Assembly (NCBI GenBank): GCA_964603585.1
Contig: CAZRVK010000009.1
Span: 7,319-71,318 of the forward strand
Length of the DNA stretch: 64,000 nucleotides
From: an uncultured Planctomycetales bacterium
GTDB lineage: Bacteria > Omnitrophota > Gorgyraeia > Gygaellales > Profunditerraquicolaceae
Reading direction: 5' to 3'
This document shows, piece by piece, positions 516 through 33,880 of this stretch (the stretch's first letter is position 1; each line of letters starts with the position of its first letter). Both the position numbers and the translations under genes were made by a program. A model generated the notes under the pieces. It was given only the letters and a program-made list of their open reading frames with translations. It was not told the DNA's origin and did no database searches.

Positions 516-1793
<1,278 letters not shown>

Positions 1794-23277: not shown

Positions 23278-25515
23278 TTATACTTTCTTTAACGCCGCAA
23301 GTTCGGTAATAATATTCCCTGCCCAGCGATAAATATTGTTCTCCATGACCACCTTCTGCATCTTCTCCATCCGCCTTGTTTTTTCCTCACCCGGCAGGTC
23401 AAGGGCTGACTTTATACTGTCGGCAAACTCTTCTATCGAATAGGGATTTACTTGAACCGCATCGGTCAACTCTCTTGCTGCCCCGGTAAACTGGCTTAAA
23501 ATCAGGGCGCCCGAGAGGTCTTTTTTGGCCGCTACGTATTCCTTGGCCACAAGGTTCATCCCGTCATGAAGCGAGCTAACGATACAAAGATCGGCCATTT
23601 TATAAAACGGCTCGATTTCATCCAGTGAAAAATGCTTTTTAAGATAAATGATCGGTTTCCAGCTATGATCGGAATATTTCCAGTTTTTCTTCTCGATTAA
23701 TTCGTCGATTTCTGCCATCAGGTCATGATAACGCTTTATATGCACGCGGCTGGGGGCAGCCAGCTGGATAAAAACAAATTTCTTCTGATACTCCGGGTAC
23801 TTTTCTAAAAACCTGTCTATCGCAAGCACCCTTTCCACGATCCCTTTTGTATAGTCGATCCGATCGACCCCCAGGCCAATGATTTTTCCTTCAAGATCAA
23901 ACTCCTTCTTAATCGTATCCACCTCTTGCATTACTGCTGGATCATTTCGGCTTTGATTTAAATGCCCATTAACACTGATCGGAAAAGCCCGCACAAAAGT
24001 TTCTTTTTCGGAACGGACAATACTGAACTTCTCCAAGTCAACTCTTGATTCAAGGAGCCTGTTAGCTGTATCCAGGAAATTATTGCAATGGTTCTGCACA
24101 TGAAAACCTATTAAATCGCACCCAAGCATCCCTTCCAGGATCTCTTTGCGATAAGGGCAAATGGAAAATGCCTCTGGGGTAGGCCAAGGTATATGCCAAA
24201 ACATGGCGATCGTAACGTCGGGACGCTTCTCCTTGATCATTTTCCCAAGCAGGGTAAAATGATAATCCTGAATGAACACAAAGGCGTGTTTGGCGGGAAG
24301 CTCATCTAAAACAGAATCCGCGAACTTCTGATTCACCTTCTTATAAATCTGCCAGTCCGAATCACGAAAGATCGGCCGGGTATGTGTATTATGGCTTAAA
24401 GGCCATAACCCCTCATTGGAAAACCCGTAATAATAACCGTCCTCTTCTTCTTTATTAAGCCATACCCTTTTTAAGATATAACGTATATCTTTAGGCGGGA
24501 CACCGAGCTTGTCCTTTGAATTGACGAATTTTTTATCCACATTCCCGGACCCGTGAGCAATCCATGTGCCGCCACAAGCACATAAAACCGGGTGAAGCGC
24601 CGTAACCACCCCGCTTGCAGGCCTGATACATCTTTCTAAACCAGTTGCCTCATCAGCTATATGCATATATGGCTCACGGTTAGAAACTACAAATAACGAA
24701 TTCTCACCCAGCTTAGCCCGGACAAGGTCTTTTAATTTTACTTCCGTCCATATTTCTTCTTTTTCTATACGCACCTGTGCTTCGTCGGAGATCGAACGCC
24801 TGGCGACCCTTAAATTCAAAGCCACCTGCTCAACCTCACTGGCAAGTTTGCCTAAATCCCCCTTTTCCCTGATAGGATGTGCTTCATCGGTTTCGCCTTT
24901 CTGAAAATATTGAAACCAATCCGTGAGCCGTTTAATAGGCAAAACAAAGATCTGCCGATGCAAAAGAATGGATATCGCAAAGATCACTACTACTAAGATT
25001 ATTAACGTCGAGCTAATACGTCTCCAGAGTTCAGTTAACCTGGCAAAAACATATGAGGTATCATGTATAACCTCGATCATTCCCAAAAGCTCGCCCTCAT
25101 CATCAAGGATAGGAAGGATATAACTGTAAATCTGGTAATCCTTAAACTGCTCCATTTCCCCTCTGGGGGATTTGCCGGTCAAAACATCTTTGATATAAGG
25201 CTTATCTTTTTCTTTCCAATCGCCGAAACGTTTAGTAAGCGCGATTATATTACCGTCTTTGTCATAAATAGCGCACCCCTGTAATCTTTCCCTGGTTTCA
25301 AACTTCTCGGTAAGATAATTTGCGTTCTTGAGATCATTGGCTAAAAGCACGTGTTTTACCGATAATTCCATGCTTTCAGCGATGCTTTTGGCTTTTCGTT
25401 TCAAGTCATCAATCAGCTTCTCTTCTTCAAAACGCACCTGAAAGAAACCAAAAAGCGTAAAAGCCGCGGAAACAATAATTAAGATCGGCAGGATAAATAA
25501 AAGGACTCTTCGCAT
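23278..25515 (-). CDS. otsA: membrane sensor-HAMP domain fused to trehalose-6-phosphate synthase
   Basis: A TM helix (residues 5-25), an extracytoplasmic domain of about 140 aa, a second TM helix and a HAMP-like segment. A full OtsA GT20 domain then runs from about residue 265 to 745, including a VNPYS motif. GAGGTGG Shine-Dalgarno. Confidence 0.8.
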   Translation of the reverse strand: MRRVLLFILPILIIVSAAFTLFGFFQVRFEEEKLIDDLKRKAKSIAESMELSVKHVLLANDLKNANYLTEKFETRERLQGCAIYDKDGNIIALTKRFGDWKEKDKPYIKDVLTGKSPRGEMEQFKDYQIYSYILPILDDEGELLGMIEVIHDTSYVFARLTELWRRISSTLIILVVVIFAISILLHRQIFVLPIKRLTDWFQYFQKGETDEAHPIREKGDLGKLASEVEQVALNLRVARRSISDEAQVRIEKEEIWTEVKLKDLVRAKLGENSLFVVSNREPYMHIADEATGLERCIRPASGVVTALHPVLCACGGTWIAHGSGNVDKKFVNSKDKLGVPPKDIRYILKRVWLNKEEEDGYYYGFSNEGLWPLSHNTHTRPIFRDSDWQIYKKVNQKFADSVLDELPAKHAFVFIQDYHFTLLGKMIKEKRPDVTIAMFWHIPWPTPEAFSICPYRKEILEGMLGCDLIGFHVQNHCNNFLDTANRLLESRVDLEKFSIVRSEKETFVRAFPISVNGHLNQSRNDPAVMQEVDTIKKEFDLEGKIIGLGVDRIDYTKGIVERVLAIDRFLEKYPEYQKKFVFIQLAAPSRVHIKRYHDLMAEIDELIEKKNWKYSDHSWKPIIYLKKHFSLDEIEPFYKMADLCIVSSLHDGMNLVAKEYVAAKKDLSGALILSQFTGAARELTDAVQVNPYSIEEFADSIKSALDLPGEEKTRRMEKMQKVVMENNIYRWAGNIITELAALKKV

Positions 25516-25730
25516 TAAAATACCACCTCACATGACCAGGGGGCCCAAGGATTGTAAAAACAATGGGCCGGCACCTGAGATGACTCAGATGGCGGCCCGA
25601 CCATCTATTAATCCTCCAAGGATATTTTACGCATCCCCAGACCACTTAGATTAAATTTCTTCCTGTAATATACCACAACCCAAGCAAACTTCAACAAAAA
25701 CTTACAAACCGCAGATACCTAATAAAGTAA

Positions 25731-29381: not shown

Positions 29382-31400
29382 TTAATCATTGATCATTTTA
29401 AATATCTTGTCCAGATTACTACGCGCCTCGGCTTCTCCCCGCAAGAAAAATTCCTTGGCCCGGCCTAACTCCAGCCAATGCATACCTTGGGTATCCGGAT
29501 GTAAGACGACATCCGCCAACAACGCCTCTTTCTGTGCTAATTCTGACTGCATCATTTCAAAACTGCTGAAGATCGAATCCAGGATATTCGTCTTGAATTG
29601 ATCTTTTAAATACGAACGTAAATCAAACCATCTCCTCTTCTTTACTGCCGCATAGGTATCGGCAAGCTGTTTTTCTAAAGATCTGCGGTATTTAATCACA
29701 TCCTCTTTGGAAGGGGTAACATTGACCGCAATGATCTTTTTAACCCCCATGGAGATCAACGGCTCCGTGGGTAACGGATGCACTACACCTCCGTCAAAAA
29801 GCAGTTCACCTTTAAACCTAAAGGGCCAAAATACACCCGGCATCGAACAGCTTGCCATGATCGCATCCAATAAAAGGCCTTTTTCTATGACCCGCGGCTC
29901 TTTTTTCTTTATATCACTGGCGATGATCTTTAGGGGAAGCCTTGTATCATAAAAAGTCTTATGCCCAAAATATTTCTTTAAAAGATTATAAAGTTTATTG
30001 CCTTTTATAAAGCCTATTACAGGGAACGTCAAATCAACCAAACTCCAGACATAACGGGGATCATGGAACTCCTGGGTGATCGACAATATCTCATCCGCGG
30101 ATTTTCCTATTGCCCAGAGGCTGGCGATCAATGAACCCATGCTTGTTCCGGTGATGACATCAATAGGGATATGTTCTTCCTCAATCACCTTTAAAACACC
30201 GATATGGCAGAACCCATATGCAAACCCCACGCCCAAAGCCAGGCCTACCAAAGCATCCCCTTCCTGCCGGGAAATCCTCCTAATCACCCGGGAATACTCA
30301 CAACCCGGGTCATCAATGATCATCCGGTCCCCGGTCTTAAACTCCACCTTGGGCAGAGTGGCAAAGATACTATACCCCAATATCTCTACCTGTTCATCAG
30401 GGGATACCTTTGCAAATTTATATTCATTGATTATAACCTTGATCTTCGATTCCTGAAAATTAAAATCATCTTTAAGCCTTTCGATCAAACTACGGGTGCG
30501 CTTCAAATCCACAGGCTCCGGGCTGGTTAGGGTATGGATAGAATCTGATTGATTGAGGACATGAAAAACAAAATGATCCATTGAAGACGGCAAATCAAGA
30601 ATAATATAGTTATAATCATTTACCAGCAAAGTAAAGATTTCCACCAGCCTGCGCACACAGGATGCATCTTCAATGTTGTAAGTAAAAAATGCTACATCAA
30701 TACCAAATTTATCTTTAATAATAAAGTCTTGGATCCGGCCAAGGTTTTCAGAATCAAGGCTCAAATCGAATACCCCGTAATCCCCGGTAATGTCCAGCCG
30801 TTTCGGTAAACTATGAAGCCTGTCCTTGGGGCAAACATCCAGGATAATCAACCGCTTCCTTGTCTCATGCTGCAGGCTAAACGCCAAATTAAGGGCATAA
30901 ATGGACTTACCGGCCTGCGAATAAGAACTAAAAACCGAGATCACCTTGCTTTCAAAAACAATTTTTTGATGTATATCCTTGTTTTTGAGCCTGCGGGAAA
31001 GAGTATGGCTGAAATGAATAGCCAGCGACGGTATTTTCTCAAGAATAAGCTTAAAATCGTCTTTGTTAATCACTAAAATAGTGCAGTCATTAACCGCCCG
31101 CGCGGTAACTGAATGGGTTTCTCCGGTCAAAAGAGAGATGATCCCAAAATACTTGCCATGATGGAGATATTCCAATACAGTTTCATTGCCTTTTGAATCA
31201 TGGGTAAAAACAGAGACCCTCCCGGAGACAATACAATAAAATGCAGCTCCGGGGGAACCTTCCTCATAAATAACCTCGCCTTTCTTGAAATTGGCAATAC
31301 CCGATCTTTCCTTTATGTAATCGATGTCTTTTCCCTTAAGCCCGGAGAATAAAGGGATTTCCTGGAATATTAAATCTTTATTGATCGGGTCCATGTTCAC
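29382..31400 (-). CDS. cNMP-binding domain :: degenerate ParA/MinD-like domain :: patatin-like phospholipase (NTE-like)
   Basis: Residues 15-130 form a cyclic-nucleotide-binding fold. Residues 150-370 form a ParA-like fold with altered Walker A (SSYSQAGKS). Residues 385-580 are a patatin domain with GVGFAYG, the GTSMG serine motif and a DGG Asp. Confidence 0.7.
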   Translation of the reverse strand: MNMDPINKDLIFQEIPLFSGLKGKDIDYIKERSGIANFKKGEVIYEEGSPGAAFYCIVSGRVSVFTHDSKGNETVLEYLHHGKYFGIISLLTGETHSVTARAVNDCTILVINKDDFKLILEKIPSLAIHFSHTLSRRLKNKDIHQKIVFESKVISVFSSYSQAGKSIYALNLAFSLQHETRKRLIILDVCPKDRLHSLPKRLDITGDYGVFDLSLDSENLGRIQDFIIKDKFGIDVAFFTYNIEDASCVRRLVEIFTLLVNDYNYIILDLPSSMDHFVFHVLNQSDSIHTLTSPEPVDLKRTRSLIERLKDDFNFQESKIKVIINEYKFAKVSPDEQVEILGYSIFATLPKVEFKTGDRMIIDDPGCEYSRVIRRISRQEGDALVGLALGVGFAYGFCHIGVLKVIEEEHIPIDVITGTSMGSLIASLWAIGKSADEILSITQEFHDPRYVWSLVDLTFPVIGFIKGNKLYNLLKKYFGHKTFYDTRLPLKIIASDIKKKEPRVIEKGLLLDAIMASCSMPGVFWPFRFKGELLFDGGVVHPLPTEPLISMGVKKIIAVNVTPSKEDVIKYRRSLEKQLADTYAAVKKRRWFDLRSYLKDQFKTNILDSIFSSFEMMQSELAQKEALLADVVLHPDTQGMHWLELGRAKEFFLRGEAEARSNLDKIFKMIND

Positions 31401-31405
31401 TTAAA

Positions 31406-32626
31406 TTACTCCAGAGTACCGTTCTTACAAACCAGTGCAAAACGCCTGGCGCTTTCTCTAATCTTGCGCTGATAAGTGTTATAATCCACATCCACAAGCC
31501 CAAACCGAGGGCCAAACCCTTTATCCCATTCAAAATTATCCATTAAAGACCAGTAGATATACCCGGAAACCTTTACCCCTGCTTGCATCGCACGATGCAG
31601 GCTAAAAAGATGCGCGCGAATAAACTCCCAGCGCAAATTATCATCTGCCGTGCAAATCCCGTTTTCCGTAATAATTACCGGCAGATTATACCGTTTTACT
31701 TTTAAAAGCGTATCATACAACCCTTCGGGATAAATATCCCAATTTAACGAATTCTTTTTTAAGGGATGGTGATTTTTCTGGCACTCGTCTAAAAGCAAGT
31801 TCATAAACCTGGGTTTTTGCACCTCCACCAAGCTGCGCGTATAATAATTGATCCCGATAAAATCAATCGCTTTATGCCGGTAAACCTCATCCAGGAACAA
31901 TGTATTATAAAGCTTATCCCTCAAATAGACAGCAAATTTATCCCGCAGGCGGTCAGTGCAGGGAACAAATGCCTGCATGTTCTTGGCAAAACTAATATAA
32001 GGAGCCGGCAAATTAGATTTTCTGTAAATATCCTTTATCGCATAATACGCCTTAACATGGGCGTTTTTAAAAGTCGCTCCTATCTTCCATGCCTTACAAA
32101 GAGATCTCTCCTGGGGAGGCCAATCCCCAAGGATATAGCCATGATAAACATACACCATCGGCTCATTAATTGTGATCCAGTAACGAGCCTGCCCGCTTAA
32201 AGCCTGCACAATATGCTTTACATACCGCAAGAAAGACTCACAGGCATCACGCCTAAGCCAACCGCCAGAATGGGCAAGCCAAAGGGGGATGGTAAAATGA
32301 TTCAAGGTGACCAAAGGCTCAATTCCCCGGGACTTTAACTGACCAATGACATTTACATAATGCTGTGTTTCTTCAGCAGAAAATTCCCCCTCTTTTGGTT
32401 CAACACGGCTCCATTCAATAGAAAGCCGATGCGCATTATGCCCCAATTGCCCCAACAAATCAAAATCCTGCGGATATAATTCATAATGCCGGCAGGCAGA
32501 CCCGGAGGTATGGGCCAACCCAACCCGCTTCTCCCATTCCCACCAATCAGCGTTAGAATTATTCCCTTCGACTTGATAACTGGAAGTAGCTGACCCCCAA
32601 AGAAAATTTCCAGGAAATTCAATCAT
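31406..32626 (-). CDS. bglA: GH1 beta-glucosidase
   Basis: LWGSATSSYQVEG at the N-terminus, ITENG nucleophile and NEP acid/base motifs. Confidence 0.85.
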   Translation of the reverse strand: MIEFPGNFLWGSATSSYQVEGNNSNADWWEWEKRVGLAHTSGSACRHYELYPQDFDLLGQLGHNAHRLSIEWSRVEPKEGEFSAEETQHYVNVIGQLKSRGIEPLVTLNHFTIPLWLAHSGGWLRRDACESFLRYVKHIVQALSGQARYWITINEPMVYVYHGYILGDWPPQERSLCKAWKIGATFKNAHVKAYYAIKDIYRKSNLPAPYISFAKNMQAFVPCTDRLRDKFAVYLRDKLYNTLFLDEVYRHKAIDFIGINYYTRSLVEVQKPRFMNLLLDECQKNHHPLKKNSLNWDIYPEGLYDTLLKVKRYNLPVIITENGICTADDNLRWEFIRAHLFSLHRAMQAGVKVSGYIYWSLMDNFEWDKGFGPRFGLVDVDYNTYQRKIRESARRFALVCKNGTLE

Positions 32627-32631
32627 GATTG

Positions 32632-33030
32632 TTAAGATTGTGTTTGGATGAAAAGATTTTCTTTCTTGAAACCTTTGTATATCCGGTATGATAAGAAATA
32701 AAAATACCCCCGCACCGGATTAGTTAGAATATCTACAATCAAATGCTGGGTAAGCCCCAGCATAAAAGCAATCCATATTACTGATAAATGCATGGACAAT
32801 ACAGCCATCCAAAGGACCAGGATAAGCTCGATAGAATGAAAGAATATAAAAACAAACCGGAATTGTCGTAAAACAAACCATTGATAAACCTTAGGGAAGT
32901 TAAAAGTAAACCCGCGCTGCAGATAATAATCAAGCATATGGTCTGCGTCTATTAAAGTCCCGGCAGCAAGAGCCGCATAAAAAGCTCCCCACGACTTAGA
33001 AATAAAATAGATTATAGAGCTTATACCCAA
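32632..33030 (-). CDS. DUF457/YdjM-like membrane-bound metal-dependent hydrolase (putative)
   Basis: 132 aa with 4 TM helices and His/Asp motifs DADHMLDY and HLIVDIL. It is the first gene after the riboswitch. Confidence 0.5.
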   Translation of the reverse strand: MGISSIIYFISKSWGAFYAALAAGTLIDADHMLDYYLQRGFTFNFPKVYQWFVLRQFRFVFIFFHSIELILVLWMAVLSMHLSVIWIAFMLGLTQHLIVDILTNPVRGYFYFLSYRIYKGFKKENLFIQTQS

Positions 33031-33114
33031 TGAATAGATAAAATGCCCGCTAACTCTGATATTTTTCCTCCAGAATTATTATCCTTTACTCATTATATCA
33101 CCTGAAAATAAAAA

Positions 33115-33141
33115 ATCCCAACAAAATATGTTGGGATTTTT
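33115..33141 (-). terminator. intrinsic terminator (9-bp stem ATCCCAACA/TGTTGGGAT, U-tract), riboswitch expression platform
   Basis: Perfect stem with a 5-nt loop, flanked by A-tract and T-tract. About 90 nt upstream of the DUF457 start. Confidence 0.6.
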
Positions 33142-33160
33142 AAAGCAAAAAAATAAGACG

Positions 33161-33341
33161 GCCGATAAAGGCAATGGCCACACACCCACGCCATCTCCTT
33201 CGGCAACCCAGCTGCCATAACAGCTAACCCGCTAAAACCGCTGGCCAGAAAACCCACAACCAGCACCAGCAAAAACGAGCATCACTGCCTTAGGCCTGTA
33301 GCTTTGCGCCCCCCGGTTTCCCGAGGTTTGCCTTTATCGGC
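33161..33341 (-). promoter_or_regulatory. c-di-GMP-I (GEMM) riboswitch aptamer with extended P3
   Basis: Minus-strand RNA: AGCCGAUAAAGGCAAACC UCGG-GAAA-CCGG GGGGCGCAAAGCUACAGGCCUAAGG ... GCUGGGUUGCCGAAGG ... UUGCCUUUAUCGGC. GGCAAACC, the GNRA tetraloop hairpin, GGGRCGCAAAGC, GGCCUAA and GGGUUxCCGA appear in the order and spacing of the V. cholerae Vc2 aptamer. P1 is closed by a 14-bp helix (33161-33174 with 33328-33341). Confidence 0.65.
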
Positions 33342-33385
33342 TAAGTTAAGTATATACCAAGATTACACTGATTTCAAGTAAAGCC

Positions 33386-33880
33386 TTAACGTTTCTTTGC
33401 CGGGCTTTTCTCTACCGCTTCTGTGGCTACGGGTGCCGGATTAAGATGCGTACTTAAAACTGCCCAGGTCTTTGGCCCCACCTTGCCATCTACTTGCAAA
33501 TTGTTGGCCTTTTGGAAAGCTTCAATCGCCTGTTTTGTCTTGGGACCGCTCTTACCATCGATGTTTCCTGTATAAAATCCAGCGTTCTTTAATGCCGTCT
33601 GAATTTCATTGACACTGGGCTTATACGGGCCTGATGGTGGAAGCATTTCTAATTTTGGCTCTGTCGCTGATACCGCAGGAATGCTTTCCGGTACAACCTG
33701 GGGTTTTACTTCAACCCCTTTCATTTCCGGAGATGCTTGAGTCTGATTACCAATAGTGCTTAAAGCCTCGATCGACATGGGCTCCTGCATCTCTTCTAAA
33801 GGCTGCTGCTTTTTGCCACATCCTGCCAGATGCATAACCACAACCAAACCTAAAGCTATAAATACCGCTTTCTTCATCAA
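33386..33880 (-). CDS. lipoprotein with C-terminal peptidoglycan-binding (PG_binding_1) domain
   Basis: LAGC lipobox. The C-terminus LKNAGFYTGNIDGKSGPKTKQAIEAFQKANNLQVDGKVGPKTW is a PG-binding repeat. Confidence 0.65.
   Translation of the reverse strand: MMKKAVFIALGLVVVMHLAGCGKKQQPLEEMQEPMSIEALSTIGNQTQASPEMKGVEVKPQVVPESIPAVSATEPKLEMLPPSGPYKPSVNEIQTALKNAGFYTGNIDGKSGPKTKQAIEAFQKANNLQVDGKVGPKTWAVLSTHLNPAPVATEAVEKSPAKKR

Follow-up and report, generated by a model that had tools for sequence, protein, structure and literature searches.

A predicted c-di-GMP-I riboswitch cassette with a conserved aptamer-enclosing helix in Candidatus Omnitrophota

The locus described here lies on the minus strand of a 64,000-nucleotide (nt) stretch of DNA from an uncultured Planctomycetales bacterium (contig CAZRVK010000009.1); this whole stretch is called the window. 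Between a gene for a peptidoglycan (PG)-binding protein and a group of genes for a YdjM-like membrane protein, a glycoside hydrolase of family GH1 and a patatin phospholipase with a cyclic-nucleotide-binding (cNMP) domain it contains an aptamer of the c-di-GMP-I (GEMM-I) class, the ligand of which is cyclic di-guanosine monophosphate (c-di-GMP). An earlier note on this DNA had described a 355-nt non-coding gap at this place, and exactly this gap extends from the stop codon of the upstream open reading frame (ORF) at 33386 to the first canonical start codon, TTG 33030. The aptamer is ordinary in itself, and the first nucleotides of its transcript can pair with a strand beyond it to form a conserved helix that covers part of the ligand-binding core. 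The features are collected in Table 1; promoters P1 and P2 are to be distinguished from helices P1 and P2 of the aptamer.

Table 1. Features of the riboswitch locus in the order of transcription (window coordinates, all on the minus strand)
Feature	Position	Details and basis
PG_binding_1 protein gene (upstream)	33386..33880	Pfam PG_binding_1, 76.3 bits
Promoter P1	33349..33377	-35 TTGAAA 33377-33372, 17-nt spacer, -10 TATACT 33354-33349; consensus scan, 10/12
c-di-GMP-I (GEMM-I) aptamer	33199..33342	Rfam RF01051 match
5' switching strand GCCGAUAAAGGCAA	33328..33341	GCCG + AUAAA + G20-G21-C22 + AA; Rfam/Vc2 register, PMC11705072
Hairpin P2 (P1a), CCUCGG-GAAA-CCGGGG	33311..33326	GNRA tetraloop GAAA at 33320-33317
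Arm P3 (P1b)	33205..33303	11-nt tetraloop receptor CCUAAG 33294-33289 / UAUGG 33219-33215
Purine-rich linker GGAGAUGGCGUGGGUGUGUGGCCA	33175..33198	5' GAAGG (33201-33197, overlapping the aptamer tail), candidate alternative partner of distal CCUUU
Distal switching strand UUGCCUUUAUCGGC	33161..33174	perfect complement of 33341-33328
U-rich tract CGUCUUAUUUUUUU	33147..33160	with the closing helix, proposed terminator T1 (putative function)
Hairpin T2, AAAAAUCCCAAC-AUAUUUU-GUUGGGAUUUUU + U-tract	33105..33141	terminator scan; hairpin at 33141-33111
Promoter P2	33092..33121	-35 TTGGGA 33121-33116 (in 3' arm of T2), 18-nt spacer, extended -10 TGaTATAAT 33100-33092; scan, 10/12 + TG
YdjM-like (DUF457-like) membrane protein gene	32632..33071	Shine-Dalgarno (SD) sequence GGAGG 33071-33067, probable ATC start 33060, stop 32632
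GH1 glycoside hydrolase gene	31406..32626	Pfam Glyco_hydro_1, 290.9 bits
cNMP-binding + ParA-like (weak) + patatin phospholipase gene	29382..31400	Pfam cNMP_binding 82.7 bits, Patatin 100 bits

The aptamer and its relatives

The Rfam covariance model RF01051 (c-di-GMP-I) matches 33342-33199 of the minus strand with 73.1 bits compared with a gathering score of 35 (E = 2e-12, far beyond chance), and the alignment covers the full model (1-87) without truncation and with one 60-nt insertion in the P3 loop. All GEMM hallmarks that had been listed in canonical order by the earlier note are present, including AAAGGCAAACC at 33335-33325 within the 5' region of the aptamer, GGGGCGCAAAGCUACAGGCCUAAG directly 3' of the P2 hairpin (33326-33311) and GCUGGGUUGCCGAAGG at 33212-33197, and both the GAAA tetraloop on P2 and the canonical 11-nt receptor on P3 are in place. 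The 246-nt region folds at -101.3 kcal/mol compared with -78.8 +/- 4.2 kcal/mol for shuffled sequences (z = -5.4).

In the Vc2 aptamer the two guanines of the ligand contact C92 and G20, and on binding helix P1 is formed by the nucleotides that immediately precede the junction and those that immediately follow C92 (PMC11705072). By alignment with the model these contact positions correspond to G20 = 33332, A47 = 33305 and C92 = 33203 and the further core positions to G21 = 33331, C22 = 33330 and G45/C46 = 33307/33306. In this register GCCG (33341-33338) represents the 5' strand of helix P1, AUAAA (33337-33333) the junction and the following GGC the core nucleotides G20-G21-C22, and the canonical partner of the P1 5' strand is the CG immediately 3' of C92. 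The two-hairpin aptamer with GAAA on P2, the CCUAAG/UAUGG receptor on P3, G20/A47/C92 and a short proximal P1 (CG/CG) are shared with Vc2 and RF01051. In contrast with Vc2, about 65 extra nt are found in P3, the aptamer starts at the predicted 5' end of the transcript, and the 5' strand of P1 has a second, much longer partner 25 nt past the aptamer that covers the junction and G20-C22.

Relatives were collected by a search of a set of species-representative genomes with the GH1 protein of the window, after which 80 GH1 loci were screened for the motifs, and by a scan of metagenomes with the conserved 5' 16-mer, where 12 of the 120 matching stretches were real members. The resulting set comprises 25 loci with the same element, the window included, from metagenome-assembled genomes (MAGs) of Candidatus Omnitrophota and from metagenome contigs; individual loci are denoted by L and a number. 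GH1 relatives come almost exclusively from Candidatus Omnitrophota MAGs, some of them labelled Planctomycetales, with a best identity of 63%, and the exact GH1 protein of the window is found on one public contig of 7.7 kb only. L020, L029 and L031 stem from groundwater or lake samples, and the GH1 locus of the Velamenicoccus culture (L019) gave no cassette motifs in these screens. Of 16 member loci scanned, 14 have GEMM-I matches that reach the gathering score; the later covariance-model scan missed L043 and L049, and L154 stood outside both GEMM-I scans as well as outside the 24 leaders read.

Among 23 homologs the G of column 11 and the A of column 25 never vary, and column 59 is C in at least 90%. 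In the homolog alignment G21-C46 and Y22-G45 (U.G 16, C-G 7) are both paired in 100%. The base of P3 (10 pairs, 23 homologs) is paired to 99.6% with three pairs changed on both sides, and the P2 stems vary in sequence among the loci yet remain paired. The c-GAMP (cyclic GMP-AMP; GEMM-Ib) riboswitches of Geobacter carry A at position 20. Here, the window and each of the 22 aligned homologs have G at position 20, and a c-GAMP identity was rejected for this reason. Judged from the model match, the element at 33342-33199 is a genuine c-di-GMP-I aptamer, ordinary in itself and detectable by Rfam, and specificity for a ligand of the c-di-GMP type is predicted from the same match together with G20, A47 and C92.

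The unusual length of P3, on which the earlier note had laid weight, is real (60 nt inserted according to Rfam) but does not define the element, since relatives have insertions in P2, in P3 or in neither. In the window the extra segment (about 65 nt, around 33288-33220) forms an irregular extended hairpin; the whole P3 arm folds at -33.1 kcal/mol, and the insert alone reaches z ~ -2.3 against mononucleotide shuffles, which is modest support. Aptamer length varies from 92 to 213 nt across the 25 loci (143 nt in the window). Insertions are located in P3 in the window, L001, L049, L110 and others, in P2 as extra hairpins in L003, L011, L031, L156 and others, in both in L020, L029 and L043, and in neither in L047, L052, L112 and L193. 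By this comparison the long P3 of the window is a variable and dispensable peripheral extension. Eight members (L020, L029, L049, L092, L110, L128, L151, L167) have a common P3 extension (...ACAAAGCCRUAUYC ... GGAUAGYUMGGC...) without counterpart in the window and L001, and this extension may be a recurrent peripheral module.

Most members represent one orthologous locus with the order PG-binding gene, element, GH1 and cNMP-patatin. Independent contexts are found in L051, where the element follows an M48 peptidase gene and precedes a Cys-rich ORF of 91 amino acids (aa), and in L102, where it precedes a zinc-ribbon-like ORF of 100 aa. The gene directly 3' of the element is YdjM-like in the window and L110, a PAS/GAF histidine kinase of 1133 aa in L047 and a receiver-domain protein in L049, and in most loci there is none. 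As this gene varies, the conserved association is with GH1 and cNMP-patatin and not with DUF457. A different aptamer was seen in L041 (6861-6947, plus strand), downstream of the GH1-patatin pair: a match to the c-di-GMP-I-GGC variant (62.8 bits, gathering score 59). It has a local terminator of the classical kind and a start preceded by an SD sequence, which means that conventional GEMM platforms are also used in this phylum.

The closing helix, the linker and the U-rich tract

In the minimum free energy (MFE) fold 33341-33328 pairs with 33174-33161, and the closing helix formed in this way dominates the structure. The chance of a perfect 14-nt complement within 200 nt is about 1e-6 (200 x 4^-14). 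The earlier note had regarded this 14-bp helix as P1 of the aptamer; its existence and conservation are evident, but it pairs the junction and G20-C22. Because the junction, G20, G21 and C22 are all paired to a strand 25 nt past the aptamer, the helix and the bound core are mutually exclusive. Read from the sequences, it is a conserved competitor helix and not the aptamer P1.

A closing helix of 11-14 bp is found in 25 of 25 loci. The distal strand CCUUUAUCGGC does not vary in the alignment, although the flanks on both sides vary strongly, and after trimming 96.7% of the closing-helix cells are paired, compared with 20-48% in slid registers. Changes in the core of the helix are all wobble-compatible (A-U to G.U, U-A to U.G), and the outermost pair occurs as A:U, U:A, G:C, U.G and G.U. 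The same columns 12-13 of the 5' strand also pair with G45/C46 in 100% of the sequences. L099, an unrelated GEMM-I locus of high GC content with the same 5' motif, has no closing helix. A covariation of position 22 with its distal partner is not claimed, as the combinations (C:G 7, U:A 5, U.G 8, mismatch 5) do not differ discernibly from independent assortment. Inverted repeats like those of miniature inverted-repeat transposable elements were rejected as the source of the 11-14-bp terminal complements, since a conserved promoter lies outside of them and the 5' repeat is the GEMM core.

The effect of ligand binding was approached with bound-constrained folds, in which the junction, G20, A47-49 and C92 were kept unpaired and G21-C46 and Y22-G45 were forced (nearest-neighbour energies without tertiary contacts or ligand). 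Under these constraints the distal CCUUU leaves the 5' AAAGG for the linker AAGG(U) in nearly all members that bear a linker, and after the exchange only a helix of 3-6 bp, GCCG(AU)/(AU)CGGC, remains beside the downstream sequence. The bound-constrained fold of the window itself is non-canonical, and for the window the strand exchange is therefore inferred from the complementarity of GAAGG and CCUUU and from the homologs. L190 is without linker, which means that the linker is not essential and that the competition between 5' strand and distal strand is the essential element. A small ORF in the SD-like linker was considered and rejected: the window and L001 have different candidate frames, the reading frame across the distal strand also changes, and no peptide is conserved.

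In one series of these folds the free and constrained states differ by 6-17 kcal/mol. Published affinities in the picomolar to nanomolar range imply, as an estimate, a GEMM-I binding energy of the same order. In these energy models the gap points to a kinetic mode of action, i.e. to co-transcriptional capture of the ligand during synthesis of the linker.

On average 6.1 of the 10 nt that follow the closing helix are U (25 loci), with a good U-run in about 15 of 25. The strongest runs (U6, U4CU6 and U6) occur in L092, L102 and L122, i.e. in the loci that have no CCCAAC-type hairpin, and this supports the reading of closing helix and U-run as a terminator, here named T1.

Promoters, hairpin T2 and the control of the operon

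The riboswitch unit appears to have its own conserved promoter of the sigma-70 type (P1). The arrangement cTTGAAA-17-TATACT-7 nt-(A)GCCGAU recurs in all 24 member leaders read, and although the spacer sequence varies the distance from the -10 box to the first paired nucleotide is exactly 7 nt in each of them. From this distance the putative start site at about 33342 is the end of the closing helix. In the window sequence no terminator was found between the PG-binding stop codon (33386) and promoter P1, so the PG-binding mRNA also runs into the riboswitch.

Such an arrangement could also belong to a stand-alone RNA or to the 3' untranslated region (UTR) of the upstream mRNA. The transcript from promoter P1 to T1 or T2 (about 190-240 nt, its 5' end paired beside its 3' U-tail) would then be functional and/or would end the PG-binding mRNA without regulating the operon in cis, and c-di-GMP would alter its conformation and by this route change how stable it is, how far it can serve as a c-di-GMP sink or how exposed the purine-rich linker is. 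There is precedent in Vc2, which acts as 3'-end stabiliser of an upstream small RNA and controls its stability (bioRxiv 10.1101/617340). As in that case the GEMM-I aptamer is found at the 3' end of an upstream transcript, here of a gene without terminator before the riboswitch, whereas the cassette of the window differs by its own conserved promoter. This promoter is by itself in line with a separate RNA, and the constant 7 nt suggest selection on the exact 5' end, which the closing helix joins to the pre-terminator region. A terminator of varying sequence always stands behind the element (L047, L051, L092), and the next gene keeps an intact independent promoter. We nevertheless consider this explanation in both its parts rather unlikely: a conserved single-stranded seed is missing (the linker varies and is lost in L190), no trans target is known, and co-orientation with a close downstream gene in three independent contexts suggests a role in cis, albeit in a small sample.

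About 40 nt past T1 follows hairpin T2, which together with its U-tract had been proposed as the expression platform of the riboswitch. A hairpin is indeed present (33141-33111, 13 pairs including an A/U extension), but it does not have the properties of a platform. In the window and in 21 homologs the MFE fold of T2 is the same whether computed freely or under the bound-state constraints, and in these 22 sequences no mutually exclusive pairing of aptamer or P1 strands with T2 was detected; the best antiterminator candidate against T2 is a 4-bp UGGG/CCCA helix. Antiterminators formed by the linker, by the 3' strand of the aptamer GCUGGGUU or by the U-run were sought by eye and in the folds and rejected, as nothing conserved was found. 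Moreover, four relatives without any GEMM match (L038, L042, L045, L078) have the same AATCCCAAC...GTTGGGATTTT hairpin directly after the PG-binding stop codon, followed by the same TGnTATAAT box and by the GH1 ATG 8-9 nt later. Because this block occurs without a riboswitch, T2 is independent of the riboswitch and looks like the terminator of the upstream gene.

In promoter P2 the TG is located at 33100-33099 and the -10 hexamer at 33097-33092, with a predicted start at about 33085. Its sequence GTTGGGATTTTTTATTTTnnGGTGnTATAAT is invariant in the window and six loci and near-invariant in five more. The arms of T2 covary (CCCGAU/GUCGGG in L031/L033, CCCG..C/GCGGG in L190, CCCCAAC/GUUGGGG in L193), and promoter P2 is intact in those cassette-bearing loci that show compensatory changes in T2. 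This means that termination at T2 and initiation at P2 are still selected in the presence of the riboswitch, which argues against simple control by read-through.

The GH1 ATG follows the TGnTATAAT box by 7-10 nt in 13 cassette loci and leaves no room for an SD sequence. SD-less GH1 starts after an extended -10 box were noted in L001 (3985-4003), L003, L011, L020, L029, L031, L033, L043, L052, L038, L042 and L045. By sequence the GH1 mRNAs of these Omnitrophota are probably leaderless, with a promoter that overlaps the terminator of the upstream gene. The conserved GGTGnTATAAT was also considered as an SD sequence and rejected, as only TG and TATAAT are universal and a distance of 7-10 nt to the ATG fits a transcription start site.

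It is very unlikely that the locus works as a classical attenuator, in which the 14-bp helix would be P1, the hairpin at 33141-33111 would be controlled by the ligand and read-through from promoter P1 would express the DUF457/GH1/patatin operon. In its favour, both aptamer and hairpin exist and point in the same direction as the operon, many genomes have the cassette upstream of GH1-patatin, and three independent contexts (the GH1 locus, L051 and L102) each have a gene on the same strand that begins no more than about 150 nt downstream. Yet the aptamer and closing helix never pair alternatively with the hairpin in the 22 folded sequences, the 14-bp helix overlaps G20-C22, and hairpin, TGnTATAAT box and GH1 start also occur without a riboswitch. 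The compensatory changes in the hairpin arms and the retained promoter argue that termination there is selected for, and a read-through RNA would carry an internal SD-less AUG, with GH1 starting 7-10 nt past the -10 box. The claim of an operon under c-di-GMP control, which the earlier note had derived from the arrangement as a whole, is unsupported because the operon has its own conserved promoter P2 downstream of this hairpin.

Two further arrangements were seen between cassette and GH1. In L112 (2549-2694, plus strand) and also in L193, L156 and L151 an extra structured leader of 60-150 nt, consisting of a long AU-rich hairpin and a following GC-rich hairpin, separates the TGnTATAAT box from GH1. 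It shows no Rfam match at E <= 1 in L112 (2530-2700) and may be an undescribed cis-regulatory RNA. In L092 (735-950, minus strand) the stretch from the cassette to the GH1 start holds three successive elements of hairpin and U-run. One of these hairpins overlaps with its 5' arm the -10 box of a TTGACA-17-TACCAT promoter, and therefore this hairpin can stop only transcripts that come from upstream, as in the design of an insulator.

We hold with moderate confidence a model in which c-di-GMP weakens the aptamer-enclosing terminator T1, T2 is a constitutive insulator and control of the operon is indirect. The cassette would consist of its own promoter, aptamer, purine-rich linker, distal strand and U-run and would be placed between the PG-binding gene and a pre-existing T2/P2 block, which would drive the YdjM-like/GH1/cNMP-patatin operon. 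Without ligand the first 12-14 nt of the transcript would pair with 33174-33161 and enclose the aptamer, and with the U-rich tract that comes next this helix would act as T1. Capture of c-di-GMP during transcription of the 25-nt linker would lock the junction and G20-C22 in the bound core, the distal CCUUU would pair with GAAGG of the linker and the helix beside the U-run would shrink to at most 6 bp. The polymerase would then pass T1 in the presence of ligand, which corresponds to a switch of the ON type at this terminator. About 40 nt further it would reach T2, which does not respond to the ligand and overlaps the extended -10 promoter of the operon. The element is co-oriented with and upstream of the operon and separated from it by a riboswitch-independent terminator and a second conserved promoter. 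Because T2 is unresponsive and overlaps P2, the output of the operon would be indirect, i.e. masked, leaky or interfering, and the options for regulation are a small leak through T2, occlusion of promoter P2, or an effect on the cassette RNA or the upstream mRNA (stability or function).

Several points weigh against this model. The distal strand was located by 11/11 complementarity and members were retrieved partly via the 5' motif, which renders the conservation of positions 2-12 partly circular, and only the terminal pair of the closing helix shows true double-sided covariation. In about 8 of 25 loci (L020, L029, L110, L112, L128, L156, L190, L193) the U-run is poor; T1 can therefore not be a universal terminator, and closing helix plus U-run was rejected in this role. 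The start of U7 in the window, 7 nt past the closing helix, is suboptimal. A compact local hairpin, formed by a local second GCCGAU copy, persists in the bound state of L003, L011 and L092 and abuts the U-run, so termination might be constitutive or even favoured by the ligand in these loci. All promoters and start sites are consensus predictions, and we know of no documented precedent for a terminator stem with a 150-nt aptamer as its "loop".

Of the routes from the cassette to the operon, interference between the promoters deserves separate mention. T1 would gate polymerases from the strong promoter P1, which would either stop about 65 bp upstream of the P2 start or run into T2. The release site of T2 lies in the spacer of P2, where read-through would occlude or dislodge the polymerase at this promoter, and high c-di-GMP would lower the operon mRNA with its absent or short leader. 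The tandem consensus-like promoters with T2 embedded in P2 fit this scheme, and T2 is conserved and unregulated as it would require; a leaderless gene has no 5' UTR for a riboswitch, which makes upstream interference one of few coupling routes. A switchable T1 is needed, and the scheme fails where the U-run is poor. Moreover, T2 and P2 overlap also in loci without the cassette and the overlap may only reflect compact intergenic regions, no precedent emerged from the literature search and the scheme is entirely inferential. We regard promoter interference as unlikely, and the same doubtful standing applies to the derived proposal that the cassette puts a leaderless, UTR-less GH1/patatin operon under c-di-GMP via promoter occlusion, with a stem that starts at the 5' end of the transcript and encloses the aptamer.

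Known systems and neighbouring genes

The closest likeness to the proposed T1/T2 arrangement is Bc1 of Bacillus thuringiensis, where probing by SHAPE-MaP (selective 2'-hydroxyl acylation analysed by primer extension and mutational profiling) indicated that c-di-GMP unfolds T1, whereas T2 stays intact and masks the response (PMC11218506). In both cases a GEMM-I aptamer is followed by two elements of hairpin and U-run a few tens of nt apart, which for the window is deduced from folds and comparison. The putative T1 of the window is a long-range helix around the whole aptamer, whereas T1 of Bc1 is a local hairpin. Furthermore, T2 of the window was there before the riboswitch, as relatives show, and shares sequence with an independent promoter, in contrast with Bc1, which is part of a normal 5' UTR with a ribosome-binding site.

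In the switches pilM (Geobacter, c-GAMP, ON) and Cd1 (Clostridioides difficile, c-di-GMP, OFF) switching proceeds via the 3' aptamer strand "A" and the downstream T and H strands (PMC9262584). Kinetic co-transcriptional competition between aptamer and terminator is the common principle, and in pilM both are mutually exclusive and the ligand prevents the terminator (PMC9262584). The window would exchange the 5' strand "P" together with the junction and G20-C22 instead, in a stem that encloses the entire aptamer, and differs from the c-GAMP switches by G at position 20, i.e. by the c-di-GMP type.

A literature search revealed no description of this platform with 5'-strand exchange, enclosing stem, dedicated promoter and the combination of insulator and leaderless-gene promoter, and riboswitches in Omnitrophota are undescribed there; the papers in which both terms occur deal with ComFB receptor proteins. 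The novelty lies in the conserved architecture that surrounds an ordinary aptamer in the almost unstudied, uncultivated phylum Candidatus Omnitrophota, members of which include predatory or parasitic ultrasmall cells. If T1 is a terminator relieved by the ligand, the known design space of riboswitch platforms would become broader, and the locus would be the second natural case after Bc1 of a c-di-GMP switch with a responsive first and an unresponsive second terminator. Such insulated switches raise the question of their purpose. In Omnitrophota c-di-GMP signalling is linked by position only to the conserved pair of GH1 and cyclic-nucleotide-binding patatin.

Of the gene assignments in the earlier note those of GH1 and of the cNMP-patatin hold (Table 1), but "DUF457" is weak: YdjM (PF04307) reaches 19.2 bits, below the Pfam gathering cut-off of 29. 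A collinear YdjM-like homolog in L110 shows that this is a real conserved gene, although it was seen only in the window and in L110 and is uncalled on the public contig. Its N-terminal SGH motif and its D.DH motif resemble those of Escherichia coli YdjM, and on sequence grounds the ORF is best called YdjM-like. An ATC codon lies 6 nt past the strong SD GGAGG, whereas the first canonical start TTG 33030 would remove the conserved SGH motif, and the homolog in L110 (around 1244-1290, minus strand) likewise has an SD sequence, with an ATC that precedes (G/A)H by four codons. These arrangements point to AUC as a conserved non-canonical start codon.

The cNMP-patatin gene follows GH1 in the related loci examined; between its cNMP-binding N-terminus and its patatin C-terminus lies a weak AAA_31 (ParA/MinD-like) region (21 bits). 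In relatives the PG_binding_1 gene is likewise found upstream, either of the cassette or of the T2/P2 block alone. Signatures of GGDEF, EAL, HD-GYP and PilZ were sought by a motif scan across the window, and nothing convincing emerged, which is uninformative for 64 kb. A second riboswitch match, of the Na+-sensing nhaA-I class, is located at 25587-25644 (minus strand; 45.6 bits, gathering score 37) directly upstream of ORF 23278-25515 (minus strand). This ORF codes for a protein of 745 aa in which a Glyco_transf_20 (trehalose-phosphate-synthase-like) domain (417.9 bits) is joined to a weakly matching Cache-like sensor region at the N-terminus, and the pairing of nhaA-I with Glyco_transf_20 makes a link between salt and osmolyte plausible.

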